The notes below the pieces were generated by a model that worked only from the letters and a program-made list of their open reading frames with translations, made no database searches and had not been told where the DNA came from. A stretch of 63,903 nucleotides of DNA, the filler included, from Nemertoderma westbladi (Eukaryota; Animalia; Xenacoelomorpha), in NCBI GenBank assembly GCA_032718475.1. It is 4 parts of 4 records of this genome, joined end to end, with 100 filler letters (N's around TTAATTAATTAA, not from the genome) between each part and the next. Parts side by side here need not be neighbours in the genome. Positions count along the whole stretch, not along the records: positions 1 to 16,635 come from JAUCBJ010001611.1; 3 more parts are not named here. One strand, 5' to 3'. The translations under genes were made by a program, and so were the position numbers. Below, piece by piece: positions 4,412-43,900 of the stretch; the stretch's first letter is position 1; each line of letters opens with the position of its first letter.

Positions 4412-4535
4412 ATAATCACTGGAGAATTATCAATATCAGTTCCAGCTATCAGCCATAGTGGTCTATATAAATGCGAGTTAGAGACTTATGGATATGGAGC
4501 AAGAGGAGAAACAGAGCTAACAGTTCTCGTTGTTG
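4412..4535 (+). CDS. Exon: C-terminal half of the Ig domain
   Basis: Acceptor ttttacAG ends 4411, donor GTAAGT at 4536; phase 0-1. GELSI..SHSGLYKC..TELTV matches Ig strands E-F-G. Confidence 0.85.
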
Positions 4536-5445
4536 GTAAGTGGAGAAATAGAACTAACAGTTCTCATTATTAGTAAGTGGTGGAAACAGAACTAACAGTT
4601 CTCATTGTTGGTAAGTGGGGGAAACAGAACTAACATTTCTCGTTAGTGGTAAGTGGAGAAACAGAACTAACAGTTCTCATTGTTGGTAAGTGGGGGAAAC
4701 AGAACTAACATTTCTCGTTAGTGGTAAGTGGAGAAACAGAACTAACAGTTCTCATTGTTGGTAAGTGGGGGAAACAGAACTAACAGTTCTCGTTATTGGT
4801 AAGAGGAGAAACAGAACTAACAGTTATAGTTATTTGTAAGTGGAGAAACATAACTAACAGTTATTGTTATTGGTAAGTGAAGAAACAGAACTAACAGTTC
4901 TCGTTATTGGTAAGAGGAGAAACAGAACTAACAGTTATAGTTATTGGTAAGAGGAGAAACAGAACTAAAAGTTCTCATTATTAGAAAGTGGAGAAACATA
5001 ACTAATAGTTCTTGTTGTTGGTAAGTAGAGAAACAGAACTAACAGTTCTCATTGTTGGTAAGTGGGGGAAACAGAACTAACAGTTCTCGTTATTGGTAAT
5101 GGAGAAACAGAACTAACAGTTCTCGATATTGGTAAGTGGAGAAATGGAACTATAACTAACAGTTCTTGTTGTTGGTAACTGGAGAAACAGAACTAGCAGT
5201 TCTCATTGTTGGTAAGTGGAGAAACAGAACTAACAGTTATTGTTGTTGGTAACTGGAGAAACAGAACTAGCAGTTCTCATTGTTGGTAACTGGATAAACA
5301 GAACTAATAGTTCTTGTTGTTGGTAAGCGGAGAAACAGAAATAACAGTTCTCGTTGTTGGTAAGTGAAGAAATATATCTAACAGTTCTCGTTGTTGGTAA
5401 GTGGAGAATCAGAACTTGCAGTTCTTGTTGTTGGCTAACTGTTCT
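4505..5445 (+). repeat. 37-bp minisatellite (~25 copies) built from the exon end plus 5' splice donor
   Basis: Consensus GGAGAAACAGAACTAACAGTTCTCGTTGTTG|GTAAGT; the first unit is the real exon/intron junction at 4535/4536. Confidence 0.95.
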
Positions 5446-6257
5446 TATTGTTGATAAAGGGACAAACGTAGCCAATTATTTTCATTATATGGTATTTTAT
5501 TTGGTGAGCAAGCGGATAATTATTTATAACTATCCTTAATTATATTAGAAAGTTACATTTGAATTTATCTCTCTCTATTACAATGTATATTTTACAATAT
5601 ATGTTTAAGGACATGGGGGGTGGTTGGCGACTCGCACTCGCATCAGCAGATGATAGTGGCAATGGTGGAATTGGTCTATTGATGAATCCAACTGCACATG
5701 CAGCATTGGACACAATAGACCAAATTTCTAACCGCATCATCCATTGCCACTTCTCATGTTCTGGAAGACTGGCTAAGAAGTTTCTTAAGGTGGATCTGAT
5801 TGTGTGCTACTTTCCAACTAGTGTTGCCCCTGTAGAGGAGGTGGAAAATTTCTACCACAATCTACAAGCAGCTACTGATGAAGTGGATCAGCATGCATTC
5901 TTAACATTCCTGGGAGACTTTAATGCAAGTCTGCATCAATCACCTACATCGCCCTGGGTCTATAGCGATTGTGTTAACCGAAATTCCGTCCATCTTTATG
6001 ATTTTATTTCTGCAAATGGATTGTTTTCGGCTGGTACCCATTTCAAGAGGCGAACTGGAAAGCCATGGACTCATAGTGGACCCAGTGGTCACAAGTCACA
6101 GATAGACCCTATTCTGTTTCGTAGGAAATATAGGAGCTCTCTACAAGACTGTAATGCATTTACACTTCGACCCTTCTCCAGTGATGACCGCCTTATTGTG
6201 GCCAAGGTAAGACTTAGTCTGCGTGCTAGCAGAACAACGAAATCTACCTTGCTGCGG

Positions 6258-6579
6258 CATTTATTATAGGATGGGATCTAGGGGTCTTAACCTCAAATGA
6301 TAAGTTTATTTTACCGAAAATAACTTATCTTTTATTGGCGCAATTGTAGGACTAATCCCATCACATGCGTACTTTTTAACTGGGTATTGTACAAATTTAG
6401 GAATCGCGTAATTTTTCTTAAAATTAATATATCATATCTCTCCAAACCACGTACGCGTTTCGACCTTACTGGGTCTCATCAGCGTGGTGTCGGATTCGAA
6501 CCTGGGACCTCGAGGTGGAAGCCGAGACTACAACCACTAGGCCACAGGTTCTTGAGATATGGACTATTAATTTCAAAGC
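6258..6579 (-). mobile_element. tRNA-promoter/hammerhead-ribozyme element, copy 1, inserted in the RTE LINE
   Basis: Reverse complement of 11521-11829 at high identity; A box TGGCCTAGTGG (6534-6544), B box GGTTCGAATCC (6492-6502), hammerhead at 6446-6488. Confidence 0.88.
6446..6488 (-). ncRNA. Minimal type-I hammerhead ribozyme
   Basis: Minus strand ACCACG-CTGATGA-GACC-cagtaa-GGTC-GAAA-CGCG-TA-CGTGGT: 6-bp stem I, complete core, 4-bp stem II, palindromic ACGCGT stem III region, GUA cleavage triplet. Confidence 0.88.
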
Positions 6580-8856
6580 GTATGAGGTTCTTGCCTCTGA
6601 GGCAGCAGATCACCGTGAGGGCTATACTGCCTTCACAGAAGCAGTTAAGTTAGCAGCTGCAGAAACAGTTCCTGTATACCCTCGAAACAGAAAAAGGGCC
6701 CCCTGTACTGACAACAAAATTCAGAAGTGCCGGAATGACCTCTATAATGCGCAGAAAGAGTCCCGACTCAAACAGACTACAGCGGCCAAGAATGCAGTTA
6801 AGGCTGCATCTAGGTCCCTGAACAAGCAGTACTCTGTTAATCTGCAGGAGCTAATAAACCAACAGGTTGATGCCATCAATGATGCTGACAACATCAGACA
6901 ATCATCCCAGGCATGGAAATCGATCAACTTGCCTACTGGGCAGAAAAGCCTACCAACCTCCAAGGTTAAGGCAGAATCACCAGCCGATTGCCTCAATGGT
7001 TGGAAGGCCCACTTTAAAAACCTCCTCAATAATGACAAGGTATTGCCTGGTAACTTTATAGAAGTAAAAGTGTCCGAGTCTGTACTTCCAGATATTCCCA
7101 CTGGCGATATCTCCTTCGCAGAAGTGAAGGCTGCTGCAAAGAGCATTAAGACCAATCGTGCCAGTGGAGTAGATGGTGTTCCCCCTGAGGTCTTTAAAAA
7201 ACCCGAGTGTTTAAAGCTCATCTATCCCATCATAGTAGACATGTACAGAACAACAAGAGTCCCACAAGAAATGAAAACAAATAAGTTGGTGCCAGTTCCC
7301 AAGAAGGGCAACCTAACACTCTATGGTTCTTTTCGGGAATCTCATTAATCTCGATTGCTGCAAAGCTATACAATAGAATTCTATTAAATCGCATCAGGGA
7401 TCCCATTGAGAGACTGCTCCGTGGAAATCAGAATGGGTTCTGTAAAGGTCATGGGACCATGGAGCCCATTTTGGCACTTAGAAGGATAATTGAAGAGTTA
7501 TCAAAAAAGAAAGAGAGGCATCTGTCTGTTATCTTTGTTGACTTCTTCAAGGCCTTTGATTCAGTCTCTCGCTCACGTATGTTCAGCATACTTTCATTAT
7601 ATGGGATTCCTGATGAAATTATTGCAGCAATCAGATCAGTATACGATGGTTCGCAACATTTGTGTCTACTGTTGATGGTGACACAGAACCATTTGAAGTG
7701 TTATGGGGCGTCCTCCAGGGAGACACACTTGCACCATTCTTGTTCATAATTGTGGTTGACTATGTTCTATGCATGTCCTTAGATCATCATAATGATGATG
7801 GGGTGATGATAACTCCACCTACTGGCTCCAGAAGTCGAGGAAATCCTCCCAAGTACCTAACTGATCTAGACTTTGCTGATGACTTTGGAGTACTCTCAGA
7901 ATCACTAGAGGGAGCCCAACGGCTCCTCAGCTCATTAGAACATGCTGCTTCTAGTGTTGGTCTTTTTATTAACTCCAGAAAGACCAAAAATTTTGACAGT
8001 TAACTTTGAAAGTTCCTCAGCAAGTCTCTGATCGGATGAGCATAAGCTCAAAGGATGGTATGCTTGAGCATGTTGATGACTTCTGTTACCCGGGATCATG
8101 GATCCGGAAGTCAGGTGAGGACCCAGGATTTGGAAGTCACCGCGAATTAATCGGAAACTTAAGGTCCGATTATTTAGAGCAGCAGTAGTTCCAGTACTCC
8201 TCTATGGGAGTCCATGCTGGGCTCTAACTGCTGAGGACACCAAATCTCTGGATGGCACATTCACAAGAATGCTACGCCGGGTTCATTGTGTCAAGTACAA
8301 TGCCCACATCTCCAACCAGAAACTATATAACATTGGATGTGTCTCATTGGTTCCCCCAAGCTTGACACTAGAACAAAATCGCCTCCACTTTGCAGGACAT
8401 TGCTTTCGCCGTGAGGACCAGCCAGTGCATAATCTTGTGCTTTGGCAGCCTCATGGAGTGAATAAGCATGGTGGACAGCCCATGACTTTCTTGAGACGCA
8501 TCTTAAAGGACACTGGCCTTGAAGATGCGGATGATCTAGCAAATGTCATGGGTGATAGGGAGTTGTGGCGGCGCAATTTTGTCGACAAGCCAGCACAGCA
8601 TTATTAAAAATGCAGCTGCAATGCAGCATCCCGATCCTAGTAGTAGTAGTAGTACAATGTATATTCTATATAGTTAGGCCTACTGAAAGTTATAATTCGC
8701 GTCAGTATACCATAGTTACAATACCTGTACTGGTATGGTACCTGTACATGTAATTAAATTAGATTCTTTAATTCGGTTCAGAGTACAGGAACTCATTTCA
8801 TTTTCTGATAAATAGGTTCCATAAAAGATCAAGTTAGTTAGTTATTATATTTACAG

Positions 8857-10496: not shown

Positions 10497-11520
10497 ATAG
10501 ATTCCTACCTGCAGTTGTTGGCGGCTCAATCACAACCTCCGAATGTCAGCTATTCAGCCTCTCCCCGCAACGTGGTTGACTTGGCCTCTGAATCCAGATT
10601 GTCAAATCCACGGCTTCCTACGCAGTTTCTGCTGCTGGATCCCATTTTCTTTGTAGGGAGATTGCTGGAGAGGTTGACTTCAATCTAACGGTTCATGGGG
10701 AATGTTTGGCGAGAGCAAAGAAAGTGGAGAGACTTGCAAGGAAGGAATTGGTGACAAAGTTGTTTGTGGAAGTGCTGGATGGAATGTCTGAAGTAAGAGT
10801 CCGGACTGTCTGTAGAGTGGCCGAATTTAAAATTGGTAGCTGGACCTCGTTGCAGATCGTATATCTGCATGACCTCGCAGTACGACCTCTCAACCCAAGA
10901 GTTTAGTGATGCAATTTCAGTGCAGTATGGCAGACTCCTCCTTGGAGTACCAAGTTGTTGTGATGGAAGTGGTGTGGGGCCCCATTCAATTTAAACCATG
11001 GTTTAAAATTCAAGAAAGGTGGCCTCGTAATTCAGCGCCATAATGAACTGCATGATACCATGGGTGATATGGCAAGTCTGGCATTCGGACTCCAACATGT
11101 CATATGGGAACCAGTTGTTCGGGAGCAACTAGAGGTTAGCGATGAATCCGGACTACACTGTGATGTGGGGATAAGGGGAGCATTCAATGTGCAGACTCAG
11201 GCATTGATTGGCATTAAGTCAACCAACCTTGACGCCGAGTCATACTTGAATCGCTCTCCCATGTCCATGCTCGAAGTTGCAGTGGAGGAGAACTGCTGCA
11301 CTGCTTTACACTTCTTTACATTGTGGTGGTGACTTCACCCCCTTTCTGTCTTCTTGTGACAAAGTCAAGGCCCCACAAGCCAACAGACTGCTCCATATAA
11401 TTACCACATGTCTAACCCACTATTGGAGTAAACCTTACTCAACAGTAATGGGTTGGGTCCGAGCGCGACTCATGTTCGCCATCATCCGTGAGACGACTGA
11501 TTGTATGAAAGGGCTGACTG
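10497..11520 (+). mobile_element. Degraded CRE-like non-LTR retrotransposon 3' part (zinc knuckle + restriction-like endonuclease)
   Basis: Frameshifted motifs KKGGLVIQRHNELHD, WEP, GLHCDVGIRG, DAESY, FTPF and WSKPYSTVMGWVRARLMFAIIR, typical of the C-terminus of metazoan CRE-clade elements. Confidence 0.72.
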
Positions 11521-11829
11521 GCTTTGAAATTAATACTCCATATCTCAAGAACCTGTGACCTAGTGGTTGTAGTTTCGGCTTCCACCTCGAATCCGACACC
11601 ACGCTGATGAGACCCAGTAAGGTCGAAATGCGTACGTGGTTTGGAGAGATATGAGATATTAATTTCAATAAAAATTACGCGATTCCTAAATTTTACACTA
11701 ACCCCGGTTAAAAAGTACGCATGTGATGGGATTAGTCCTACAATTGTGCCAATAAAAGATAAGTTATTTTCGATAAAATAAACGTATCATTCGAGGTTAA
11801 GACCCCTAGATCCCCTCCTATAATAAATG
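11521..11829 (+). mobile_element. tRNA-promoter/hammerhead element, copy 2 (B box deleted)
   Basis: Matches 6258-6579 inverted; a 14-nt deletion between TCGA direct repeats removes most of the B box. Confidence 0.88.
11598..11640 (+). ncRNA. Minimal type-I hammerhead ribozyme, copy 2
   Basis: ACCACG-CTGATGA-GACC-cagtaa-GGTC-GAAA-TGCG-TA-CGTGGT; one C>T change in stem III relative to copy 1. Confidence 0.8.
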
Positions 11830-12185
11830 TATAATAACAAACACCTCGAAAAATACAGCTTGCCAACACAATGTTATCGGAAATAATAACACAATATTAT
11901 AAGAATAAATCACATGCATCAGGTGATTTGGTTGTATTCAAAGTGCCATATCTTTAAAATTATAACAGGTATATAAATAAACCGATTCCAGTTTTGAATT
12001 CAGCATAAGATTCTGCATCAGAAAAATGTAAAAAAAATAGAAAAAATTTAGATTTTTGCCATACTTCATTTGCCAAAACCTAATCAACCAAAACTCCCCT
12101 TAATGTCGCAATCAAAGACATACTACATACGTTTTCGAGTTACTGTAGTTGGATACATTATAATTTCGTTCTCTCTTTGGGACTT

Positions 12186-18619: not shown

Positions 18620-19890
18620 ACTACTACTACTAGGATCGGCATGCTGCATTATAGCTGGATTTGTAAGAATGCTGTGCCGGCTTGTTGACAAAAATTGCAC
18701 AGCCACAACTCCCTATCACCCATGACATTTTCTAGATCATCCGCATCTTCAAGGTCAGTGTACTTTAAGATGCCTCGCAAGAAAGCCATGGGCTGTCCAC
18801 AATGCTTTTTCTACGGAAGCCCATATCGGCCATGTCGCGCGCAAACTTCCATGTCAAGCGCGCATTAACGTTATGCCATTTCAGTGTAGAAACATTTGCG
18901 CGCGCGACAAGAAAGTTTGCGCGCGCGACATGGGGAAGGACATAACGGCCATGTCGCGCACGAACTTCATGTCATTTCCGTTTGGAATTTTGTCTGGGCG
19001 GGAAATTTGAATTTAGATGTCCTGCTGTTTGACTGTAATGCGAACCCCTGAACAGGAATAGGCCTGCTATAGCCGTATGCCGTATAGGCTCTCTGCTACT
19101 CTCACACTGACTGTACAACAATACCTTACACTGCAGCACTGCTAAGCTACTGCTAGTCTATCAGTATGTCAGATACTTAAGCTGCTGAACTGTATTCCTC
19201 CTGCATTACTAACAGCTGAACAACAGTAGGTCACATAAATTCAAATTTGCGCCCAGACATAATTCAAAAAATTACATTAAGTTTGCGCGCGACTTGGCCG
19301 TTATGGGTTTCACCATGTCGCGCGCGCAAACTTCCATGTCGCGCGCGCAAACTACCATGACGCGCGCGCAAACTACCATGACGCGCGCGCAAACTTTCAT
19401 GTCGCGCGCGCAAATGTTTCTACACGGAAATGGCATAAACTTTGCGCGCTTGACATGGAAGTTTGCGCGCGACATGGCTGTTATGGGCTTCCGTATTATT
19501 CACTCTATGAGGCCGCCAAAGCATACGATTATGCACTGGCTGGTCCTCACGGCGAAAGCAATGTCCTGCAAAGCGGAGGCGACTTTTTTCTAGTGTCAAG
19601 CTTGGGGGAGCAAATGAGACACCTCCAATGTTATATAGTGTCTGGTTGGAGATGTGAGCATTGTACTTGACACAGTGAACCCGGCGTAGCATTCTTGTGA
19701 ATGTGCCATCCAGAGATTTGGTGTCCTCGGCAGTTAGAGCCCAGCATGGATTCTGTACCTTAATAGAGGTCATTTCGGCACTTCTGACTTTTGTGGTCAG
19801 TCCAGGGGGCCTTTTTCCTGTTTCGAGGGTATGCAGGAACGGTTTCTGCAGCTGCTAACTTAACTGCTTCTGTGAAGGCAGTATAGCCTC
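18620..19890 (-). mobile_element. Internally deleted copy of the RTE-like LINE, split by a MITE
   Basis: Inverted match to the LINE 3' end including the (TAG)n tail (18620-18810, 19496-19750), then a jump to sequence matching ~6620-6740. Confidence 0.85.
18814..19493. mobile_element. Tc1/mariner-type MITE (TA target duplication) nested in the LINE copy
   Basis: TA|CGGAAGCCCATA...TATGGGCTTCCG|TA; long imperfect TIRs with CATGTCGCGCGCGCAAACT subrepeats. Confidence 0.85.
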
Positions 19891-20049
19891 GCCTAATTTA
19901 AAAAATTAATTTAAGTCGCGTCACAGACTTGTAATTTTCCAGTAACTGCTTCTGTGAAGGCAGTATAGCCTCGCCTAATTTAAAAAATTATTTTAAGTCG
20001 CGTCACAAATTTGTAATTTTCCAGCCAACAAGTAAACATAGGCCAGCGC

Positions 20050-20470
20050 CCTTTAAGATGCCTCTCAAGAAAGTCATGGGCTGTCCTCCATGCTTATTCA
20101 CTCCATGAGGCTGCCAAGCAGATGGTGTACTGGCTGGTCCTCACGGCGAAACGAATGTCCTGCAAAGCGGAGGCGGCTCTGTTCAAGTGTCAAGTTTGGG
20201 GAGACTAATGAAACGCACTCAAGGTTGTATATAGTCTGATTGGAGATGTGTTCATTGTACTTGACACAATGAACCCGGCGCTGCATTCTTATATAAGTGC
20301 CATCCAGAGATTTGGTATCCTCTGCAGTTAGGGCCCTTCAGGGACTCCCATATTAGAGTATTGGAACTACTGCTGTATAAATAATCGAATCTTAAGATTC
20401 CGTTTTATTCTATGTGAATTCCAAATCATTGACAGACTATTCAATGCTGCCCATGCCTTCCCTTACGTAT
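20050..20470 (-). mobile_element. RTE-like LINE 3' fragment
   Basis: Translates to RRVHCVKYNEHISNQ..RLRFAGHSFRREDQPV, matching the 8140-8510 region. Confidence 0.85.
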
Positions 20471-20804: not shown

Positions 20805-22964
<2,160 letters not shown>

Positions 22965-23319: not shown

Positions 23320-25702
23320 TGGGTAGGGTGCGTGGGTGGATGGGAGGTGGGAGGTGAGTGGATGCTGGATGGGAATGTGGGAATATTGTAATGTGGGAAG
23401 GTGGATGGGAATGTGGGAAGATGGAAATGTGGGAAGGTGGGTGGGAATGTATGAAGATGGGAATGTAGTAAGATGGAATGTGGGAAGATGGGAATGTGGG
23501 AAGATGGGAATGTGGGAAGACGGGAATGTAGGAAGATGGGAATGTGGGTGAGAATGTAGGAAGATGGAATGTGGGAAGGTTGATGGGAATGTGGGAAGAT
23601 GGGAATGTAGGAAGATGGGAATGTGGGAAGATGAGAATGTGGCAAGATGGGATGTGGGGAGGTGGGAATGTAGGAAGATGGGAATGTGTGTGGGAATGTA
23701 GGAATATGGGATGTGGGAAGGTTGGTGGGAATGTAGGAAGATGGGAATGTGGGTGGGAATGTAGGAATATGGAATGTGGGAAGGTGGATGGTAATGAGGG
23801 AAGATGGTAATATAGGAAGATGGGAATGTGGAAAGATGGGAATGTGTGAAGATGAGAATGTGTGAAGATGGTAAGGTGGGTGGGAATGTAGGAAGATGGA
23901 ATGTGGAATGTGGGAAGGTTGGTGGGAATGTAGAAAGATGGGAATGTGGAAAGATGGATGGGAATATGGGAATGGGGAAGGTGGATTGAAATGTGGCAAT
24001 GTAGCTGGGAATGTAGGAAGATGGGATGAATGTGGTGGGGGGGTGGATGGGAATGTGGGAAGATGGATGGGAATGTGGGAAGATGGGATGTGGGATGGTG
24101 GGATGTGGGAAGGTGGGTGGGAATGTATGAAGATGGGAATGTGGGAAGATGGGAATGTAGGAAGATGGAATGTGGGAAGATGGGAATGTGGGAAGATGGG
24201 AATGTGGGTGAGAATGTAGGAAGATGGAATGTGGGAAGGTGGATGGGAATGTGGGAAGGTGGATGGGATTTGTAGGAAGATGGAATGGGGGAAGGTGGAT
24301 GGGAATGTGGGAAGGTGGATGGGAATGTAGGAAGACGGGAATGTGGGTAGGAAGATGGAATGTGGGAAGGTTGGTGGGAATGTAGGAAGATGGGAATGTG
24401 GCAAGATGGGAATGTAGAAAGATGGGAATGTGGGTGGGAATGTAGGAAGATGGAATGTGGGAAGGTTGGTGGGAATGTAGGAAGATGGGAATGTGGGAAG
24501 ATGGGAATGTGGGAAGATGGGAATGTGGGTGGGAATGTAGAAAGATGGAATGTGGCAATGTGGGGAGGTGGATGGGAATGTGGGGAGGTGGATGGGAATG
24601 TGGGAAGATGGGAATGTGGGTCGGAATGTGGGAAGATGGAATGTGGGAAGATGGAATGTGGGTGGGAATGTAGGAAGATGGAATGTGGGAAGGTGGATGG
24701 GAATGAGGGAAGATGGGAAGGTGGATGGGAATGAGGGAGGATGGGAATGTGGGTGGGAGTGTGGGAAGGTTGGTGGGAATGTAGGAAGATGGGAATGTAG
24801 GAAGATGGAATGTGGGAAGATGGGATGAATGTGGGAGGGTGGGATGGGAATGTGGGAAGATGGATGGGCATGGGGAAGGTGGGTGGGAATGTGGGCGGGA
24901 ATGTGGGAAGATGAGAATGTGGGAAGATGGTAAGGTGGGTGGGAATGTAGGAAGATGGGAATGTAGGAAGGTTGGTGGGAATGTACGAAGATGAGAATGT
25001 AGGAAGATGAGAATGTGGGAAGATGGGAATGTAGGAAGATGGGAATGTGGGTGGGAATGTAGGAAGATGGAATGTGGGAAGGTTGGTGGGAATGTAGGTG
25101 GGAAGATGGATGGGAATGTGGGAAGATGCATGGGAATGTGGGAAGATGGATGGGAATGTGGGAAGATGGATGGGAATGTGGGAAGATGGGAATTTGCGAA
25201 GATTGTAATGTGGGGAGGTGGATGGGAATGTTGGAAGATGTCTAGATAGGCATGAGGGAAGATTGGAATGTGGGGAGGTGGGTGGGAATATGTGAATGTC
25301 TGTGGGAAGGTGGATGGGAATGTGGGAAGATGTGAATGTGGGAAGGTGGGTGGGAATGTGGGATGGTGGATGTGGGAAGATGTGAATGTGGGTGGAAATG
25401 TGGGAAGAAGGGGTGGGAAGATGGGAATGTGGGAAGATATCTAGATAGGCATGTGGGAGATGGGAATGTGGGTGGCAATATGGGGAGGTGGATGGGAATG
25501 TGGGTGGCAATATGGGGAGGTGGATGGGAATGTGGCAAGATGGATGGGAATGTGGGATGATGGGAATGTGGGATGGTGGATGTGGGAAGATGGAAATGTG
25601 GATGGGAATGTGGGAAGATGGATGGAAATGTGGGAAGGTGGGTGGAAATGTGGGAAGGTGGGTGGAATGTGGGAAGGTGGGTGGTGGGAATGTGGGAAGG
25701 TG
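23320..25702. repeat. Purine-rich degenerate satellite (GGAAGATGGGAATGTG)n in tubulin intron 2
   Basis: About 2.4 kb of GGGAATGT/GGAAGAT/GGT modules with almost no C on the plus strand. Confidence 0.95.
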
Positions 25703-26913
25703 GCCAGATTGTTGTTAATGTAGGGATATTTGAAACTATATTCAAAATATATGGAAGAATACTATTTAACTATACTATTTTTAAATTTTCGATGCAATGG
25801 GGGTTTTCCTGGTGGGTGATTGCAGTTTCGATGTTAGAAAAACGTTTTTGGATACCAGACTGTTAGTTCACATTTCATTTCTGACATCTGTCTTTGGAGT
25901 TGACGAATTTTACACTGACTGTCTGTCGATCTACCTGCCAAATTTTAAGAAAGAACACAACCTCGCTAAAGTTTTAGCTAAGGGGGTTTTCCTGGTTGGT
26001 GATTCAATTTCAAATATGATGCCTTTGCGTTGGTCTTTATACCTGTCGGTCTGACCGTCACAAGTTAACTGACAGAAGGACAGACACTCTAGAATCCGTT
26101 AATCGTTAACAGACATCTGATCGGAATCATAAACCAGGAAAACGCCTATAACAAAAATTTCAGTTGTGTATCGCCATTTGTAATTTTTGACTGAAAGACA
26201 AGACAGGCGGGCAGAAAGACAGACATTCTAGAATCCATTCAACATTAACACTGGTATTAGCAGTGATATCACTAAACAGGAAAAAATTGTACAATGCGTG
26301 TGATTTCTTTAATGTGTCTGACAGAACGACTGACAGACAGCTATACCTCGAGAACTAGAGTGATCTCGCTATGTCGTTATCAGTTTTTAAATCGCAAATA
26401 AATTGTTATCAAGAATCTGAAAAAAACTTTGATTTTTTTCAATCATTGTCACAAACAGGTGCCCTTAAGTATAGTGTCTTTGAGAAGCTGTAGAAGAACA
26501 AGAAGTGTCATTGACTGAGATACAGACAGAGGGGGTGGATTTCGGCGCAATAAAAAGTCATCCCCGCTCCAAGGGGAAAATCGACGCAAATAACAGCTGA
26601 TTGATAACTCCCAAAATTATAACCGTAACTAATCCCATTCTATCCTAGTCGCAGTCTCAGTAATAGTCAAACAAGGATTGTAGTGGAGCTGCACATGCTA
26701 TCCCTCTGCTGCATGGAGAAGAATTATCTTTATGGGGATTTACTCAACTGTTATGCTTTCCATACCTCTGATAGCTGGTGAGAGATTTGTCAAGAGAGAT
26801 AGTTTCCCTCACCTAAAAATGCAGGCGCCAGGAATACATAACATTAAATAGATAGATAGTCAAAAACAAAAATATGACACTATGAAACCATAGGTCTCAT
26901 GGTTACTTAGTTA

Positions 26914-28475: not shown

Positions 28476-30075
28476 CGGCATCAGCCGACAGATATCAGCC
28501 GACAGCTATAATCTGACAGCTACCAGCCGACAGCTATCAACCGACAGCTATCAGCCGACAGCTATCAGCCGACAGCTACCAGCCGACAGCTATCAACCGA
28601 CAGCTATCAGCCGACAGCTATCAGCCGACAGCTATCAGCTGACAGCGTTCAGACGACAGGTATCAGCCAATAGTTATCAGCCGACAGTTATCAACCGACA
28701 GCTGTCAGTCGACAAGTATCAGCCCTAACAGCCGACAGCTTTCAGCCGTCAGATAACAGCTGACATCTGTATCTCGATAGCTAATAGCTCAGCCAACAGC
28801 TATCAACCGCCAACTATCAACCGACAGCTATCAACCGACAGCTATCAACCGACAGCTATCAACCGACAGCTATCAACCGACAGCTATAAGCCGACAGTTA
28901 TCAACCGAGAGCTATCTGCTCCGGCAGCCGACAGATATCAGCCGTCCTCTAGCTATCAACATCATAGTTTGAAACAGTTACAACTCGAATATAACTAACT
29001 AGTAACTGTGCCAATTCAACCAACGCGTATGCCACAACTAAGACCAGTAAATTAATAATTTACCTATAAACAGCCACGCACCAATATTTAGCAGTAGTCG
29101 ATTCAGTTTTTTTGTGTCGTTCAAATTTGATTTATTGTGTCTGTTAGAAAAATTGTCAAATTAATCAGACCGAATTATATACAACCTCGTACACAGCAGC
29201 TGGAGCAGGTGGTCTAACCAATATAAAGGCGACCATAAGGGTTTCCTGTCTTCTCCCGTATGCATTCAACTATGGTCGACCTAACTTTAACCTCAGTGGG
29301 TCTAGTGGATTTTGAACAGTATTTATAAACGCCATTTAATTATAATGTTGTAGGTTTTATGGTCTGCCAGCAGTGGGATGCCAGAGTAGCCAAAAACCCA
29401 AATCTGAAGTTTTTTTGTAAATATTCTAAGGATGGCAGTAGGCCTATGTACATTAAATGTTCTAAAGTGACCAGCTTCTCGTTTCAATTACTAATATTAG
29501 GCTAAATAAACTAGAAATGTTTTGAATTGTTATTTTTTATGATAGCTGTCAGCTCTAATTGTCGGCTAGAGCTGATACCAAACTGTCGCTTGCATCTGTC
29601 GGCTGATAGCTGTCGGTTAATAGCTGTTGGCTCTAGTTGTCGGCTAGAGGTGATACCCAACTGTCGGTTGTAACTGTCGGCTGTTAGCTGTCGGTTGATA
29701 GCTGTCAGCTGACAGCTGACGGTTAATAGCTGTCTGCTCTAGTTGTCGGCTAGAGGTGATACCAACTATCGGTTGCAACTGTCGGCTGTTAGCTGTCGGT
29801 TGATAGCTGTCAGCTGACGGTTAATAGCTGTTGGCTCTAGTTGTCGGCTAGAGGTGATACCCAACTGTCGGTTGCAACTGTCGGTTGCAACTGTCGGTTG
29901 CAACTGTCGGTTGCAACTGTCGGTTGCAACTGTCGGTTGTTAGCTGTCGGTTGATGGCTGTCGGTTAATAGCTGTTGGCTCTAGTTGTCGCCTAGAGGTG
30001 ATACCAACTATCGGTTGCAACTGTCGGCTGTTAGCTGTCGGTTGATAGCTATAGCCTAATGCTGTCGCCTGATAT
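28476..30075. mobile_element. Foldback-like element with inverted arrays of a 14-bp subterminal repeat
   Basis: (CAGCTATCA[A/G]CCGA)n at ~28476-28960 and its reverse complement (TCGG[C/T]TGATAGCTG)n at ~29540-30075, around a unique ~580-bp core. Confidence 0.7.
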
Positions 30076-30259: not shown

Positions 30260-30795
30260 TAAAATTAATATTTTATGTAACTTTAATTAACCCTAAGTCA
30301 TATTCGACGCAATTTAGCTAAATTTATTAGATATCACACATGGAACTTCTAATTCACATATAATGTTGCAGTACTGGAAATATAACATTTGGGTTGTCGC
30401 CGCCACTATTGTTACCTTGCAAACAAAATTGCCAACAGACGCGAGCTGTCCAGGAATGAGTTCTGGGTATTGTAGAAAAACTTACCGGTTTGCATGCAAT
30501 GGGTGGGGGGGGGGGGGGGGGGGGGGGGGGCGTCTCAATGTGAAATTATCTTTGAAAGGAGCATGTTACTGTGACATGTTACATTAACCAAAACAACAAA
30601 CTGCAGTCAATATTGAATAATAGAACAGGTTACAGTTTAATTTTTGAGAGTAATCAGCTGTCATTGGCGTAGATTTTCCACTGGAGAATAATTAAATTTG
30701 ACCCCCCCCCCCCCCCCCCCCCCATCAGTCTGATATTTTCCCTACACTAGTACCATTACTCTGATCGAACAAACTTTAATTGGAGAACATTAATT

Positions 30796-33139
30796 GTAGG
30801 GGGATGGTGGGGGACCCCAACCTAATGGTAGGGGGATGGTGGGGGACCCCAACCTAATGGTAGGGGGTGGTAGTGGTGGGGGACCCCAACCTAATGGTAG
30901 GGGGATGGTGGGGGACCCCAACCTAATGGTAGGGGGATGGTGGGGGACCCCAACCTAATGGTAGGGGGATGGTGGGGGACCCCAACCTAATGGTAGGGGG
31001 ATGGTGGGGGACCCCAACCTAATGGTAGGGGGATGGTGGGGGACCCCAACCTAGTGGTAGGGGGATGGTGGGGGACCCCAACCTAATGGTAGGGGGATGG
31101 TGGGGGACCCCAACCTAATGGTAGGGGGATGGTGGGGGACCCCAACCTAATGGTAGGGGGATGGTGGGGGACCCCAACCTAGTGGTAGGGGGATGGTGGG
31201 GGACCCCAACCTAGTGGTAGGGGGATGGTGGGGGACCCCAACCTAATGGTAGGGGGATGGTGGGGGACCCCAACCTAATGGTAGGGGGATGGTGGGGGAC
31301 CCCAACCTAGTGGTAGGGGGATGGTGGGGGACCCCAACCTAATGGTAGGGGGATGGTGGGGGACCCCAACCTAATGGTAGGGGGATGGTGGGGGACCCCA
31401 ACCTAATGGTAGGGGGATGGTGGGGGACCCCAACCTAGTGGTAGGGGGATGGTGGGGGACCCCAACCTAATGGTAGGGGGATGGTGGGGGACCCCAACCT
31501 AATGGTAGGGGGATGGTGGGGGACCCCAACCTAATGGTAGGGGGATGGTGGGGGACCCCAACCTAATGGTAGGGGGATGGTGGGGGACCCCAACCTAATG
31601 GTAGGGGGTTGGTGGGGGACCCCAACCTAATGGTAGGGGGATGGTGGGGGACCCCAACCTAATGGTAGGGGGTTGGTGGGGGACCCCAACCTAATGGTAG
31701 GGGGATGGTGGGGGACCCCAACCTAATGGTAGGGGGATGGTGGGGGACCCCAACCTAATGGTAGGGGGATGGTGGGGGACCCCAACCTAATGGTAGGGGG
31801 ATGGTGGGGGACCCCAACCTAATGGTAGGGGGATGGTGGGGGACCCCAACCTAATGGTAGGGGGATGGTGGGGGACCCCAACCTAATGGTAGGGGGATGG
31901 TGGGGGACCCCAACCTAGTGGTAGGGGGATGGTGGGGGACCCCAACCTAATGGTAGGGGGATGGTGGGGGACCCCAACCTAATGGTAGGGGGATGGTGGG
32001 GGACCCCAACCTAGTGGTAGGGGGATGGTGGGGGACCCCAACCTAATGGTAGGGGGATGGTGGGGGACCCCAACCTAATGGTAGGGGGATGGTGGGGGAC
32101 CCCAACCTAATGGTAGGGGGATGGTGGGGGACCCCAACCTAATGGTAGGGGGATGGTGGGGGACCCCAACCTAATGGTAGGGGGATGGTGGGGGACCCCA
32201 ACCTAATGGTAGGGGGATGGTGGGGGACCCCAACCTAATGGTAGGGGGATGGTGGGGGACCCCAACCTAATGGTAGGGGGATGGTGGGGGACCCCAACCT
32301 AATGGTAGGGGGATGGTGGGGGACCCCAACCTAATGGTAGGGGGATGGTGGGGGACCCCAACCTAATGGTAGGGGGATGGTGGGGGACCCCAACCTAATG
32401 GTAGGGGGATGGTGGGGGACCCCAACCTAATGGTAGGGGGATGGTGGGGGACCCCAACCTAATGGTAGGGGGAGTGGTGGGGGACCCCAACCTAGTGGTA
32501 GGGGGATGGTGGGGGACCCCAACCTAATGGTAGGGGGATGGTGGGGGACCCCAACCTAATGGTAGGGGGATGTGGTGGGGGACCCCAACCTAATGGTAGG
32601 GGGATGGTGGGGGACCCCAACCTAATGGTAGGTGGTGAGTGGTGGGGGACCCCAACCTAATGGTAGGGGGATGGTGGGGGACCCCAACCTAATGGTAGGG
32701 GCTAGGGTAGTGGTGGGGGACCCCAACCTAATGGTAGGGGGATGGTGGGGGACCCCAACCTAATGGTAGGGGGCTGAGGGTAGTGGTGGGGGGACCCCAA
32801 CCTAATGGTAGGGGGATGACGTGGGGGCCCCAACCTAATGGTAGGGGGATGACGGGGGACCCCAACCTAATGGTAGGGGGCTACGGGTAGTGGTGGGGGA
32901 CCCCAACCTAATGGTAGGGGGATGGCGGGGGACCCCAACCTAGTGGTAGGGGGCTGAGGGTAGTGGTGGGGGGACCCCAACCTAATGGTAGGGGGATGGC
33001 GGGGGACCCCAACCTAATGGTAGGAGGATGGCGGGGGACCCCAACCTATTGGTAGGGGGGTGGTGGGGGATCCCAACCTTATGGTAGGGGGATGGCGGGG
33101 GACTCCAACCTAATGGTAGGGGGCTGAGGGTAGTGGTGG
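30796..33139. repeat. 32-bp G-rich minisatellite (~70 copies, runs into the gap)
   Basis: Unit GTAGGGGGATGGTGGGGGACCCCAACCTAATG, highly homogeneous, degenerate near the 3' end. Confidence 0.97.
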
Positions 33140-36419: not shown

Positions 36420-36926
36420 TCAGGTGAGACTATAGAAATATATTTGTCAGATTTGACGTGGATGTTATTGTTGACGGGAATAAAACCGTCAGATATCCAT
36501 AAAAAGGATCCAATTCTTAAATGTCAATTGATATACGGTTTACCTCCAGACGTAAGCAATAAATTAGTCACTATGACCTCGACAGAGGATTCAGTTATGA
36601 GTGTCGAAGATCTAGTCCAGAAGGCGAGGAGGATAGTAGCGAGCCGAAGTGTGATCGAGAAGTTTGATTTTCCGGTTGGGGCGTTGAGAGGTAAAGCGAG
36701 TAACATTGAACATCGTGTGCCATCTAGCGGTTATCGGACGAAGAGTAAACCAAAAGGCATGTTGCCTTACAATACAAATGCGGAAATCAAAAGGTCATAT
36801 CGCTTCCAGGTTACGCTTCAACCTAGGCTTAATATTATATCAACCAATGGTGTATCAGTAGATGCTATTTTGTTAATAATTAATTGTTCAATGAAATGTG
36901 ACGAATACGTAACAGTAGATAATTAA
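36420..36926 (+). pseudogene. Retrotransposon Gag capsid-like fragment (Ty3/Gypsy-like)
   Basis: SGETIEIYLSDL..ILKCQLIYGLPPDV..SVEDLVQKARRI resembles the GE..Y..L..F..GL..L..A capsid C-terminal pattern. Confidence 0.5.
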
Positions 36927-38240
36927 ATTGGTGCTACAGTAGATAATTCCATTAATGCTACAGTAGATAATTAAATAGGTGCTACAGTAGATAATTCCAT
37001 TGGTGCTACAGTAGATAATTCCATTAATGCTACAGTAGATAATTCCATTAATGCTACAGTAGATAATTCCATTGGTGCTACAGTAGATAATTCCATTGGT
37101 GCTACAGTATATAATTCCATTAATGCTACAGTAGATAATTCAATTTGTGCTACTGTAGATAATTCCATTGGTGCTACAGTAGATAATTCCATTAATGCTA
37201 CAGTAGATAAATCAATTTGTGCTACTGTAGATAATTCCATTGGTGCTACAGTAGATAATTCCATTAATGCTACAGTAGATAATTCCATTGGTGCTACAGT
37301 AGATAATTCCATTGGTGCTACAGTATATAATTCCATTAATGCTACAGTAGATAATTCAATTTGTGCTACTGTAGATAATTCCATTGGTGCTACAGTAGAT
37401 AATTCCATTAATGCTACAGTAGATAATTCAATTTGTGCTACTGTAGATAATTCCATTGGTGCTACAGTAGATAATTCCATTAATGCTACAGTAGATAATT
37501 CAATTTGTGCTACTGTAGATAATTCCATTGGTGCTACAGTAGATAATTCCATTAATGCTACAGTAGATAATTCCATTGGGGCTACACTAGATAATTCCAT
37601 TGGTGCTACAGTAGATAATTCCATTGGTGCTACAGTAGATAATTCCATTAATGCTACAGTAGATAATTCAATTTGTGCTACTGTAGATAATTCCATTGGT
37701 GCTACAGTAGATAATTCCATTAATGCTACAGTAGATAAATCAATTTGTGCTACTGTAGATAATTCCATTGGTGCTACAGTATATAATTCCATTAATGCTA
37801 CAGTAGATAATTCCATTGGTGCTACAGTAGATAATTCCATTGGTGCTACAGTAGATAATTCCATTAATGCTACAGTAGATAATTCCATTGGGGCTACACT
37901 AGATAATTCCATTGGTGCTACAGTAGATAATTCCATTAATGCTACAGTAGATAATTCCATTGGTGCTACAGTAGATAATTCCATTAATGCTACAGTAGAT
38001 AATTCCATTGGTGCTACTGTAAATAATTCCATTAATGCTACAGTAGATAATTCCATTGGTGCTACAGTAGATAATTCCATTGGTGCTACAGTAGATAATT
38101 CCATTGGTGCTACAGTAGATAATTCCATTGGTGCTACAGTAGATAATTCCATTGGTGCTACAGTAGATACTTCCATTGGGGCTACACTAGATAATTCCAT
38201 TGGTGCTACAGTAGATAATTCCATTGGTGCTACAGTAGAC
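36912..38240. repeat. 24-bp tandem array (~55 copies)
   Basis: Unit GCTACAGTAGATAATTCCATT(GG/AA)T; no frame-breaking indels (the minus-strand frame is open 36971-38242). Confidence 0.97.
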
Positions 38241-38244
38241 AAAG

Positions 38245-39495
38245 GTGGGAGAGGTCGTCAAGTTTAATGGAGATGAGATGAAATGGTTACCTTTTAATGA
38301 ATATTATAAAGATAACATACAGAACTCTGTACTATCTAACGGAGAGAAACTTAGATTCCTCATCGAGTGCTTGGAAGGACCTCCCAAGTTAATGGTGTTA
38401 AAGTTTATTGGACATCCAGATGGATTAAGACAAGTTTGGGATACACTAAAAATCAGGTATGGTAATAGGACTAACATAGCTAGGTATTTATATGCGAAAT
38501 TAGTAGCGCCCCGAAAGTTTCTTAGCAGCGGGATTATAGAGTTTTCCGATGAGATTCAGGAGATCTGTAGACAGCTAGATTGGTTAGGTAAGTCTCAGGA
38601 ATATCAGAGTTCTATGGTTGTTGGAGCCGTAGCATCTACTTTGCCAAAAGGTGGAGTAGGTACTCGTTGGGACAAAAGGGTTCTCTATATGATGGACCAG
38701 CAACAAAGAGACCCTACCATGGCTGATCTCATGTCATTCTTAAATGGAGAGGTAAGATTACAGCTCCTAAAGCAGTCCAGAGAGAAGACACCGGAAAGTA
38801 AGGTGAGTGAAAAACCCATTTCTAGGAGAAAAGTAACACCAGTGTGTTATACAGACGACGGCGAAAGCCAAACCTCATACGAGGAAAACAGCGGTAAGGA
38901 CACCAAAAGATCTTATTATGTCAATAAAACGAGAAAAGACATAAGTAAATCTAAGTCTCGAACCAGTGACAGGAGAGAACAGGTAACAACTCCTCCTACG
39001 TCTCCTAAGAGAATTCATGGAAGAAAGCCCGAGGAAAGAACAAGTTTGCACAACACCACACAGGTTAAAGTAAGTAACATCAAATCCAAATGTGCATTGT
39101 GCGACGGGCCCCATCGCTTGAGTGGGTGTGATGAATTCTTGAAGAAATCCCTTAAAGATAGACGTGATGTCATGTGGGATAAGCGGTTGTGTTATAATTG
39201 CCTCAGACGAGGACACCAACGGCGGACCTGTTACTCAGACGCGAGGTGTGCTAAGTGTGGCGCGAAACATCATATCTTGCTGCACACCGAATTTGACAGA
39301 ACCCGCACGAGTCAGGTAAGTGAGCCCGAACTACATGTCCAATTCAGTGATGTGAACGACACTGACCACAGCTCTGAGATGGAAGGATTCTACACGGACG
39401 AATTCTCCAACAAAAATGAATCCTGTTATATGATAAACACCGCTGTGTATCGAGAGCTTTCGTACGAGACTGAATCGGAAATGGAAGATCCTTGA
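38245..39495 (+). CDS. gag: BEL/Pao Gag (5' end missing or disrupted)
   Basis: KFNGD..WLPF..EKLRFL..L..RYG (DUF1759-like) and the BEL triple knuckle CALCDGPHRLSGC / CYNCLRRGHQRRTC / CAKCGAKHHILLH. Confidence 0.9.
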   Translation: MGEVVKFNGDEMKWLPFNEYYKDNIQNSVLSNGEKLRFLIECLEGPPKLMVLKFIGHPDGLRQVWDTLKIRYGNRTNIARYLYAKLVAPRKFLSSGIIEFSDEIQEICRQLDWLGKSQEYQSSMVVGAVASTLPKGGVGTRWDKRVLYMMDQQQRDPTMADLMSFLNGEVRLQLLKQSREKTPESKVSEKPISRRKVTPVCYTDDGESQTSYEENSGKDTKRSYYVNKTRKDISKSKSRTSDRREQVTTPPTSPKRIHGRKPEERTSLHNTTQVKVSNIKSKCALCDGPHRLSGCDEFLKKSLKDRRDVMWDKRLCYNCLRRGHQRRTCYSDARCAKCGAKHHILLHTEFDRTRTSQVSEPELHVQFSDVNDTDHSSEMEGFYTDEFSNKNESCYMINTAVYRELSYETESEMEDP

Positions 39496-42400
39496 ATGAC
39501 TATTCCGGGCCGACAACCATCTTGGAAAGCGCCAACTTCCTACGTCAGTATCCGGGAATTTCCTGTGGTGCAGCTGAGAGTCCATGGGCTAGGGAAGAGC
39601 CTGATAGTAAACGCCCTCCTTGACTCCGGCAGCACAGGTACATTCATTGACAAAGAACTAGCCGAAGACATCTTTGCTGGACAACCCAAGTTCCGAACTA
39701 AGTTGAACCTTTCAGGAATTATGCAGGTTTGGAAATCCACAGTAGCTACAGATTACTACGTGGGTGCGTTGTCCACTCCCCAGGATGAACTAGGAGAACA
39801 TAGCGTAAGGTCGGTAAAAATGGTGGCGATAAAGAACTTTGCTACTAGCCAAGTGGAACCTTACAACTGGGATGAAGACCATTTTACCCAGCAACATGAT
39901 ATCCCTAGATTCAACACCGATTACCCAGGGGTGCAGATATTAATCGGCCAAAATGCGCACGAAGCGCTTGAGACATTAGAAAAATGGCCTGCTCGACCGC
40001 AACCATTACAAACGTACGCGGGAAGAATGAGAGTAGGTTGGTACTTCACTGGACCTTCCCGTAGAACCCTAACGGAAAGACTCCCTAATGAGAGGATACA
40101 TCAGGTGAGTGAATGGGAAGAAGAAATCAGTGAGGGAGAAACCACAACTGAAGGAACACCATACTCCTCAGATAATGACGATATTAACCAATTATATGAT
40201 GAGGAAAATGCAATCGACCTCCTCACCGAAAATAAAACTTGGTTAAACCAAGTAAACTTGTGCCATCTTATCGATCAACATGGTGGACAATTCACATATA
40301 ACGATGAATTAAACAAAGTGATAGATCGATACAATAACAAAATTCGTGATGAACCCGCCGTACGATTCTTTACTCAAGAAGCCGTAGAGTCTAATTCCTA
40401 CGACAAAGCCTTGTCTGTCGAGGAAGACAGAGCCAAGCAGATTCAGGAAACGACAACCCGTTATCTGAAGGACGAAGGTCGCTATGAGATTGGTCTTCCG
40501 TTCCGACGGCAAGAACCTAACTTTATAAATAACCGACCTTTAGCGGAAAAGAGAATCGCGCAACTACATCGGCGTCTTACGGCCAACGTTCCAGCCAGGG
40601 AAATGTATAAAACCCAGCTGAAGAAATTTATCAATAAAGGATACGCGGAGCGAGTACCGGAAGAAACACCCATAACGGAGAGAACGTATTATCTAACACA
40701 TTACGTTCCCAAGCCCGGTAAACCCAACGAAGTCCGGGTAGTGTTTGACGGCTCCACCATTTACATGGGTCAATCCCTGAACTCAGAACTGTTGCCGGGA
40801 CCCAACTTACTCCAATCCTTGTTGGGAATATTATTAAGACTGTGGCAATATTCTATCGCTTTCGCTTCGGATATAGAAGGCATGTTCTTACAAGTCAATG
40901 CGCTGGATAGGGATCGAGACAGCCTACGATTTCTGTGGTGGCCTGAAGGAGACCTCAACCGAAAACCGGTGGAGTACTGGATGACCATCCAGGCTTTCGG
41001 GATCATCTCGAGCCCCTCGAACGCTTGTTCAGTAGTGCATACCACTGCTGATGACAACCGAGACGCCTTCTCTAAAGCGGTTATCGACAACATCAAACGG
41101 GATATATACATGGATGATAATTTAAAGTCCCTCCCATCGGTGGAAGAAGCCATTGATGTTGCCAAGGGAACGGTGGAGTGCTTGCAACACGGTGGATTTC
41201 GACTAACCAAATTCACTAGTAACTCCCATGAGTTTCTGGAATCGATCCCAGTAGAAGACCGAGGTGTTAAAGATCTGGACCTTATTAAGGACGATCTTCC
41301 GGAAACCAAAACACTTGGTTTAAAATGGGACACGGAGAGAGATATCTTGTTTTTCCAGTTAAAACAGCGAGATAATCCAGTTAGAACTAAAAGGATTTGT
41401 CTAAGTATCCTGAGCACTTATTTCGATCCATTGGGATTTATTAGCCCAGTTATATTAGTTGCTCGGAGCTTGGTGCAACAAATGTGGCTTGAAAACCACT
41501 TGTGGGATGATCCACTTAAGGGAGAACTACTAAAGAAGTGGATGAAATGGGAAGATTCTCTACCATCCATCGAGAACTTTACGATTTCCCGTTCATATTT
41601 TGGTCATGTTCTCCCCACGTATTCCTATCAACTCCATGTGTTTGGAGTCGCCAGCGATATGGGAATAGGTATAGTAGCCTACCTGAGAGTTGAAACTCCG
41701 GATGGAATTAAAGTTGCCTTGGTCGCTTCTAAGGCCCTGATAAACAACAAATTAAGAGTTCCTCGAGCGGAGTTAAAGGCGGCTCTATACGCTACAGCTA
41801 TGGGCCGGAATGTAACAGAACAGATCGACTATCCACTGGAGAAAACTGTCTATTGGACCGATGCTTTACTCGTTCTGGAGTATATAACAAATGAAGTCTG
41901 TCAGTTCAGCGTCTTTGTTACCAACAGAGTAGCCATTATACTCAGTCGCTCTAATGTAGATCAATGGAGACATTGCCCTGGGACGATTAATCCAGCCGAC
42001 ATCGCCTCCAGAGGAGCAACTCCTCCAGAACTGATAGATACTCCAGACTGGTTAGGTGGACCCGACTTCCTGAGTAAAGAAGTGGATGAATGGCCTCCTC
42101 ATCTCACCACGGCTGAGATTAGACAAGCCAAGGGAGCGGAGAAAGTCAAACCTAAAACCCGGACGAGTAAATCAAAGTTATTTAAACCTGTGATAGATCT
42201 GTCTGTACTACACATCTCCAGGGACAACGCTGTGGATCTAAACTCCCCCACCACGAACAAATCTGTTATAGAAATCAGAGAAAGAGACTGGAAATCTGGA
42301 ACACCAGACGTCTCGCAAGGACTCTCACCGCTCCTGCAGAGAGCAATAAATCATTATAGCTCCTGGAATCGGCTTTGCAAGGCCGTCGTGTATCTTAAAC

Positions 42401-43900
42401 GGTGTTTCCATCATCACTATTCCAGGAAAAAGATCGCTAGTGATACCGCTCCCATAATATCCGAAAAGGTCCATGCTATTAAAGACCTTCCCGCTTATAA
42501 AGTGTCGGATAGGTTTCTGACTGAGAAGATCAGTTACCAAGAGCATGAGGATACCAATAAGCAGATACTGAGACTCCTGCAATGCTACGAAGATTCCGAT
42601 AAGTATTTCCTGTTGTTGAGAAATCCACAGATGCGCTTAAGGGATCGTTTCTCTAGCACGATGATAGATGGGTTAATACGTGTCGGAGGGAGATTAACTA
42701 ATGCTCCATTGTCTTTTGACACTAAGTTTCCCATACTCATTAGAAGTCTTGAAATACAAATCAAGATGATTGTAGATGTTCACAGTAGGCTTTACCATGC
42801 TGGTAGAGAACGAGTTCTTAGCGAAATTCGAACTCGCTATTATTTCCATAAACCCCGTAGAGCTCTGAACCAAGTTCTTAGGAACTGTATACCCTGTAGG
42901 AAAGCATTCAGTAGGCCTTTAACACAGCGAGAGGCAAAATTACCTAGGGAACGAGTAAGCTTCTATGAACCACCCTTTACTAATACTGGTGTGGATTTAT
43001 TTGGCCCTATTGAAGTATATCGTGCTAAGATTATAGTCAAGCGATGGTGTGTCATCTTTGTCTGTATGACTTGTAGAGCGATCCATCTAGATATGGTGAA
43101 CGATCTATCTACCAACAGCTTCATACTGAGTTTACGCCGACAGATCGCTCGTTTTGGAACTAGCAACACGATGAGATCCGACAAGGGAATAAACTTCATT
43201 GGCGCCAATAATGAGATCAAAGCTTACGTGAAAGATTGGAACCAAAGACAGGTGGACGATCAGCTAAGGGTAACAGCATCTAGCTGGACCTTCAACGCCG
43301 CCGACGCCCCTTGGTGGGGAGGAAGTTGGGAGAGATTAATACGGAGCGTGAAGACCGCATTTCACTTTATAGTGCCGTGCCACGCGTATCTCACTGACGA
43401 ACTTTTGCGGACGTTAATGGAAGAAATCGCCGCCTATCTTAACGAGAGACCGCTTATGCCAGTCTCATCGAGTCCCGACTCCCTAGAAGCGCTAACACCC
43501 GCACATTTCCTACTAAAGAAACCTGTAGCCATGCTCCCGCAATCAGAAATCACGGACGGAGACGAATACTGCCGACAAACTTGGCAACTTATGCAGTTAT
43601 TATCCCGTCGTTTCGCTGACCATTTTGAAAAACATTATCTTCCTACGCTACAACTTCGAACAAAGTGGTTTCGCAGCAAGAAAACGTCAGTGCTGGAGAC
43701 ATGGTCCTTATCGTGGAATCAGATCTTCCACGTAAGCGGTGGCAGACAGGTCGTATCATCGAGACTCATATATCCGATGATGGTTTAGTGCGATTGGTAG
43801 AACTCGTCGCCATGCGACGTAACTTTAAGAAACCTGGAATTGTATTCGAAACACAACAACTCAATCGCCCAGTTGGTCGTTTATGTTTACTGGAAAGAAA
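39496..43900 (+). CDS. pol: BEL/Pao Pol (protease-RT-RNase H-integrase) with a frameshift near 43675
   Basis: ALLDSGS; VRVVFDGS, DIEGMFLQ, YMDD; PRAEL, YWTDA, NPADIASRG; H..H..CIPC, GVDLFGP, RSDKGINF, GGSWERLIRSVK. The C-terminus GDMVLI..RPVGRLCLL lies in another frame (43665-44066). The first RNase H Asp appears replaced (FGVAS). Confidence 0.95.

Follow-up and report, generated by a model that had tools for sequence, protein, structure and literature searches.

A young, high-copy repeat in Nemertoderma westbladi combines a tRNA-like promoter head with a hammerhead ribozyme and is probably a retrozyme

Analysis of a 63,903-nucleotide stretch of the Nemertoderma westbladi assembly GCA_032718475.1 (four parts joined end to end; hereafter the window) revealed a young, high-copy, non-coding repeat that probably represents a non-autonomous retrozyme, one that is equipped with a Pol III promoter of its own and mobilized by a Penelope-like element. 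The motifs, a closed family unit of 411 nt, a high read depth and two solitary copies shorter than the unit and lacking target-site duplications were observed directly. The earlier note had described a dispersed monomer of about 320 bp and interpreted it as a SINE/retrozyme hybrid. The length did not hold, as the family unit measures 411 nt and closes head to tail in one contig; the hybrid remains the best reading except for its SINE part, since the 411-nt unit and its head-to-tail closure point to a retrozyme with its own promoter.

Copy 1 (6258..6579, minus strand) is solitary and represents 322 nt of the 411-nt unit, with intact promoter motifs and ribozyme. Its tRNA-like head (6492..6551) ends right after the B box and has a predicted Pol III start near 6551; the A box (6534..6544) and the B box (6492..6502) were recognized by motif pattern. 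The Rfam tRNA model matched the head from 6551 onward with 12.5 bits (cut-off 29; E 2.7) and placed CUUCCAC in the anticodon-like loop (6515..6521), which reads as Gly UCC and could be an altered Glu loop. ARAGORN called no tRNA. Rather than a tRNA gene, this head is what remains of a tRNA up to the B box.

A complete type I hammerhead (6446..6488, minus strand) follows, separated from the B box by 3 nt. Stem I consists of 6 bp, in which 6488-6483 pairs with 6451-6446, and is succeeded by the core CUGAUGA (6482-6476), a 4-bp stem II with a 6-nt loop, GAAA, and the palindrome ACGCGU of stem III (6458-6453), with a predicted cut at 6452/6451. The motifs named in the earlier note were all found where it had placed them. 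Its designation of the ribozyme as minimal was not retained, because a helix I of 6 bp, a helix II of 4 bp and a short palindromic helix III fit the canonical animal type as given in PMC4209133. The 5' piece from 6551 to the cut counts 100 nt, as had been proposed; this RNA would be a by-product of solitary copies and not the propagating form.

The head and the ribozyme are enclosed by a 23-nt inverted repeat, with the 5' arm at 6554..6576 and the 3' arm at 6418..6440 (minus strand), the arms being 83% complementary in copy 1 and 87% in copy 2. Farther downstream, an AT-rich hairpin (6295..6333, minus strand) contains the sole sense-strand T4 of the family (6320-6317), a possible leaky Pol III stop; the T4s at 6423 and 11691 of the window copies are interrupted in the family letters. 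Avoidance of T-runs on the sense strand was unsupported, with 1.5 runs expected and a probability of 0.54 for one or fewer. The element has a GC content of 0.38-0.39, no direct terminal repeat and no Pfam match in its overlapping ORF.

Copy 2 (11518..11876, plus strand; 359 window bases) is also solitary. Its opposite orientation had been recognized before, and the alignment with copy 1 is 90% identical over 324 columns; the ends were corrected from 11521-11829, and the B-box region was found to lack 14 bases, lost after 11586. Other damage private to this copy comprises an A-box change at 11558 and a stem III change at 11629, and its hammerhead (11598..11640, plus strand; predicted cut after 11634) has a weakened palindrome. 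Copy 2 includes 47 nt of AC-rich 3' family sequence (11830-11876) absent from copy 1; the 5' ends of the copies lie 3 nt apart and the 3' ends 47 nt.

The family unit was obtained from one 441-nt contig of run X2, which reads from 11828 to 11518, through 39 letters absent from the window, and from 11876 to 11799. The 30 bases repeated at both ends of this contig (mean depth 13.8) give a closed unit of 411 nt, which comes from this single contig of a run that carries another organism's label and whose RNA nature is guessed. In run X1, which may be the window's own source, the loose ends of 19 contigs before 11518 and of 32 contigs behind 11876 agree with the ends of the 39-letter linker; no contig bridging the head-to-tail junction was present among the joints listed (15 of 20). 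Junction-spanning copies were thus seen in the closed contig of X2, and X1 added loose ends that agree with it, both window copies being solitary. Since run X2 holds the host LINE of copy 1 as one 2356-nt contig, DNA at a low level is the simpler source, and the closure is best read as DNA junctions, not circular RNA. For the path to close, copies spanning the junction must be frequent enough for assembly; long arrays need not exist.

The depth of the family along copy 2 runs from 11518 to about 11876. In run X1, the summed depth reached about 2 × 10^5 to 7.9 × 10^5 over most of the element (6 × 10^4 in one variable bin), compared to 21 and 25 on two contigs of the unique flanks of copy 2. This suggests a family of about 10^4 copies, an order of magnitude taken from read depth, which is not itself copy number. 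Between copy 1 and the X2 family contig, 7 of 321 bases are different, and the main piece of copy 2 departs from that contig at 8 places and in gaps, suggesting that copies are about 2% apart. The family is uniform, with 20 variant rows at a threshold of at least 2% across 561 bases. The only one in the ribozyme is at 11629, where the family letter accounts for 572,788 of 572,833 in depth and copy 2 alone departs from it. The hammerhead core is unchanged in the family letters, which is no evidence for selection, since the family is uniform everywhere; the uniformity is youth, not proof of selection. Among 12 listed rows, seven (from five studies) contain at least part of the element, five of them with at least half of its words; no RNA run is listed among them. 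No contig of run X9 (organism C) matched the element, which is not proof of absence.

Copy 1 is inserted in a broken non-LTR retrotransposon (5520..8607, plus strand) with endonuclease and reverse transcriptase remnants, which matched PF03372 (weakly, under the cut-off), PF00078 and PF20049 (under the cut-off) and which we take to be RTE-like. In runs X1 and X2, contigs of the host element without the insertion pass from 6260 through 65 other letters to 6580. At the site of copy 1, 65 target bases are missing and there is no duplication, and three bases (6258-6260) fit both the element and the target; a deletion after insertion could look identical. Target-site duplications were found at neither of the two copies, the flanks of copy 1 sharing only off-register 5-6-mers and those of copy 2 sharing no 5-mer. 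The element showed no similarity to the rest of the window, including the LINE 3' end, and the search for a Penelope reverse transcriptase or GIY-YIG ORF gave no motif in the window and none beside either copy. Non-LTR retrotransposon sequence was recorded at 5520-8660, with further pieces at 18620-20427 and 53954-54245, at an X1 depth similar to or above that of the element. Directly upstream of copy 2 lies a broken ORF (10600-11517), presumably similar to the restriction-like endonuclease at the C-terminus of CRE-type non-LTR elements.

These data are unlikely to reflect an ordinary, LINE-mobilized SINE of tRNA origin that is dispersed in the genome, captured the hammerhead once and carries it as a passenger, the junctions being occasional tandem insertions. 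Such a SINE would fit the two solitary window copies, the X1 loose ends behind 11876, which turn A-rich and disagree (agreement 0.61) as an A-tail would give, and the single T4, which could terminate a 235-nt transcript. A tRNA-like head cut off after the B box, a high copy number and the lack of an ORF are likewise general SINE traits. Unlike such SINEs, the element shows no duplication at either copy and 65 missing bases at copy 1, 3' ends that lie 47 nt apart in the two copies, no LINE-derived tail or similarity to a LINE 3' end within the window, and a ribozyme directly behind the head in a unit that closes. The junction was also frequent enough to close a contig with a mean depth of 13.8, and an active ribozyme would remove the promoter from a monomer transcript. 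The element should not be filed as a plain SINE, as neither copy has a duplication, or as a pLTR, as neither has an ORF of this kind beside it.

The pLTR alternative supposes that the unit belongs to a longer, possibly autonomous Penelope-like element with a tRNA-derived promoter, the short copies being truncated ends; we hold this to be improbable. Hammerheads do occur in pLTRs (PMC4209133), and the element resembles them in its type I hammerhead with a palindromic helix III and in the AC-rich stretch downstream of the ribozyme (PMC4209133, PMC11167929, PMC3846280 and PMC8557442). Some pLTRs do have a small palindromic helix III. The minimal hammerheads of schistosome pLTRs are given in PMC4209133 with a helix II of 7-8 bp, a helix I of 4-5 bp and no helix III, whereas the helix sizes of the element are canonical and not of the pLTR type. 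The 411-nt unit moreover closes on itself, leaving no room for an ORF, and the element differs from pLTRs in its tRNA-type promoter and in having no reverse transcriptase or GIY-YIG ORF in the window. In favor of a longer element, a 1831-nt contig of run X5 (depth 401) has at its far end a piece that matches 6421-6527, the ribozyme and most of the head, with 10 differences; about 1.7 kb of different sequence follows downstream in the sense direction. This contig is possibly a longer relative or autonomous partner of the element, but it may be a copy inside another repeat.

Helitron- and Helentron-derived elements form tandem arrays, and a rolling-circle DNA element of this derivation with a captured SINE head and ribozyme would explain the tandem junctions by DNA rolling-circle copying. 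The absence of duplication, the 23-nt inverted repeat near one end and the hairpin near the other agree with this very improbable origin. The inverted repeat, however, lies inside the closed unit with just the RNA motifs between its arms, the ends of the copies differ, and the junctions show no Helitron-type end motif and no A/T or T/T site. The RNA motifs are also kept in a diverged contig of run X7, a sediment metagenome. This contig preserves the B box and ribozyme over 71 nt with 2 differences, one of which is private to copy 2, and, at equal spacing, the AC-rich part over 36 nt with 4 differences; the approximately 160 nt in between do not align at 80%. This single contig is the sole hint of selection on the motifs.

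As to sequence, chance juxtaposition of motif-like sequence or an assembly artefact is effectively refuted by the shuffle controls, by the presence of two copies and by runs of five studies containing the element (the best of which may be the window's own source), the Rfam scores below curated cut-offs being the point in its favor. The combined A-box and B-box pattern matched once in the window, and none of 100 shuffles had any match. The structural hammerhead descriptor, a generic form composed after the motif was seen, found two sites in the window, one in each copy, compared with a single match summed over 100 shuffles, none of which contained two. The loose hammerhead core pattern alone was no better than chance, with 10 overlapping matches in the window and 7.0 expected. 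The Rfam search proposed in the earlier note matched both ribozymes, the best model being HH9 at 28.2 bits for copy 1 and 23.1 bits for copy 2, both under the curated 52. Rfam microRNA matches in the window were rejected as repeat artefacts far below the cut-off.

The search for relatives used a general pattern of B box plus hammerhead core, which returned 11 viral stretches and at least 119 metagenome stretches. Eight of the at least 131 matches passed the stem filter, and none was BLAST-similar to the element at E 0.01. The family-specific ribozyme pattern had no match in viral contigs and none in prokaryote genome contigs. Seven of the viral and metagenome stretches (L005, L010, L091, L108, L007, L089 and L098) have a complete-looking hammerhead with a long stem III a few bases past a tRNA-like T arm; these possibly serve in the trimming of tRNA 3' trailers, and their sequences are unrelated to the element. 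Another stretch, the AT-rich contig L045, is Penelope-like in look, with hammerhead-like motifs at 437-477 and 750-790 that are inverted and whose palindromic stem III is short; ARAGORN, run over 60 of the metagenome stretches, called no tRNA in it.

Folding predictions gave -86.3 kcal/mol for copy 1 (z = -4.1), and none of 100 shuffles was equally stable. In the predicted structure, the 5' half of the B box is paired with the opening 7 nt of the head, and its final bases extend the distal part of ribozyme stem I. Pair probabilities in the full copy 1 were 0.76-0.97 for stem I and 0.99-1.0 for stem II; in a transcript from 6551 they were 0.46-0.58 and 0.73-0.74, respectively. The active monomer fold of the hammerhead had a probability of about 1e-7. 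As a double hammerhead, the dimer co-fold reached -44.3 kcal/mol compared to 2 x -18.0 kcal/mol, a gain of 8.3, and the gain for the ribozyme of copy 2 was 3.7 kcal/mol. By these models, stem III is predicted to be too short for an active monomer, and two ribozymes are predicted to co-fold as a double hammerhead.

For the retrozyme with its own promoter, the following cycle is proposed. Pol III would start near 6551 in head-to-tail copies and would partly pass the single T4 into the next unit, where two ribozymes would cut out a monomer of 411 nt; this would carry the promoter 3'-terminally and may be circularised by a host ligase. A Penelope-like enzyme would then start internally, possibly in the AC-rich 3' part, and insert one unit, several or part of one. 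For a solitary copy the cycle would mostly be a dead end, with pieces of about 100 and 135 nt from copy 1 and probably nothing from copy 2. Against this cycle, Pol III may already terminate at the T4, 235 nt from the predicted start, and not reach the next unit. Only one of nine retrozyme dimers cleaved in a recent study (bioRxiv 10.64898/2026.07.22.740005), and the eight inactive dimers count against the proposal, as does the in vitro insertion that did not need ribozyme cleavage (PMC11167929). The latter also describes one Penelope-like protein that starts reverse transcription internally, in an AC-rich loop of its RNA, and PMC3846280 states that Penelope-like insertions may lack duplication and show microhomology. 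The missing duplication, the microhomology and the AC-rich 11830-11876 of the present element would be a resemblance to these systems only.

The closest known system is the SINE-like Sm-alpha and Sj-alpha repeats of Schistosoma, reportedly described by Ferbeyre in 1998. The comparison with Sm-alpha made in the earlier note was apt: PMC6765202 describes tandem repeats in which a hammerhead comes after a Pol III promoter, and in which cleavage leaves each copy with the promoter 3'-terminal. Sm-alpha is related to tRNA-derived repeats and has more than 10,000 copies (PMC2770079), and a 335-bp member of the family is recorded (PMC8490949). Both elements have A and B boxes directly upstream of a type I hammerhead and a tRNA-derived head, the use of Pol III here being predicted from motifs, and Sm-alpha depends on tandem repeats because of this 3' position of its promoter after cleavage. 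The unit of the present element is 411 nt compared to about 335 bp in Sm-alpha. Unlike in Sm-alpha, 3 nt separate its B box from its ribozyme, pairing between these two is predicted, the motifs lie between the arms of a 23-nt inverted repeat, and the stem III palindrome has 6 nt, favouring the dimer. The Rfam Hammerhead_1 model was presumably built on schistosome sequences; if so, HH9 as the best match argues against Sm-alpha itself, in a comparison by model and not by sequence. As Sm-alpha is already on record with this layout and with the proposed cycle, the element probably adds no new category; a second case is useful.

Metazoan non-LTR retrozymes share with the element a non-coding unit of a few hundred bases, a GC content below 50%, a canonical type I hammerhead, no LTR, PBS or PPT, strong self-pairing and a proposed Penelope partner. 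They occur as head-to-tail tandem copies and as many solitary monomers, to which the junction-spanning copies and the two solitary window copies seen here may be compared. The accessible text of PMC7229834 reports the strong RNA self-pairing and has no passage on Pol III or SINEs, and that of PMC7761336, a 2020 review, states that retrozymes do not seem to harbour promoters. Canonical animal hammerheads cleave best as dimers in tandem repeats (PMC4209133). Unlike these retrozymes, the element has A and B boxes; circular RNA and cleavage, demonstrated for them, are proposed for it. The literature search found no tRNA-headed hammerhead repeat outside schistosomes (most subscription papers, Repbase, Dfam and supplements lay outside its scope) and no closer precedent in the available text of PMC10886601, PMC6155905, PMC8557442 and PMC3088659. 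Retrozyme sequence sets, Repbase and Dfam could hold this family or other tRNA-headed ones.

For the transcription of animal retrozymes, Sm-alpha is the only Pol III case found in print. A doubtful but possible extension is that the element is an independently evolved, self-promoting retrozyme in which promoter and ribozyme overlap, the B box being part of stem I, and that the 1.8-kb X5 relative may be its autonomous Penelope partner with a Pol III promoter. If true, tRNA-headed, Penelope-borne circular retroelements would recur as a class across animals and be more than a schistosome oddity, and the question of how retrozymes are transcribed would be answered for this family. With its youth, high copy number, intact A and B boxes, one-T4 unit and dimer-type ribozyme, the family offers a compact system for studying separately the promoter, read-through, cleavage, circularisation and the dependence on Penelope.

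Several other features were recorded in the window. Three long open frames lack a clear Pfam family: 54955-56220 (minus), for which a search for relatives found none, 45658-47100 (plus), and 58935-59939 (plus), which we take to be transposase-like. A stretch of 283 bp with long terminal inverted repeats (22357-22639) is MITE-like and gave a false microRNA match. At 36912-43788, 55 copies of a 24-bp unit share the reading frame of the ORFs that they run into, in which DUF1759, Pao peptidase and integrase zinc-finger domains were matched; by these domain matches the region is read as a BEL/Pao-type LTR retrotransposon. Minisatellite arrays occupy 4501-5434, 23366-25703, 28480-30070, 30791-33123 and 56313-58829, with units of 37, 16, 14, 32 and 39/56 bp, respectively; several are strongly strand-skewed, and the window also has six 44-base N gaps. 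As to the host lineage, two other proteins gave no hits, and the minus strand of 20808-21986 carries a long stretch coding for alpha-tubulin, which marks the host as an animal but is too alike in many animals to tell the phylum, with identities of up to 97% among the best 120 of 2666 matches.
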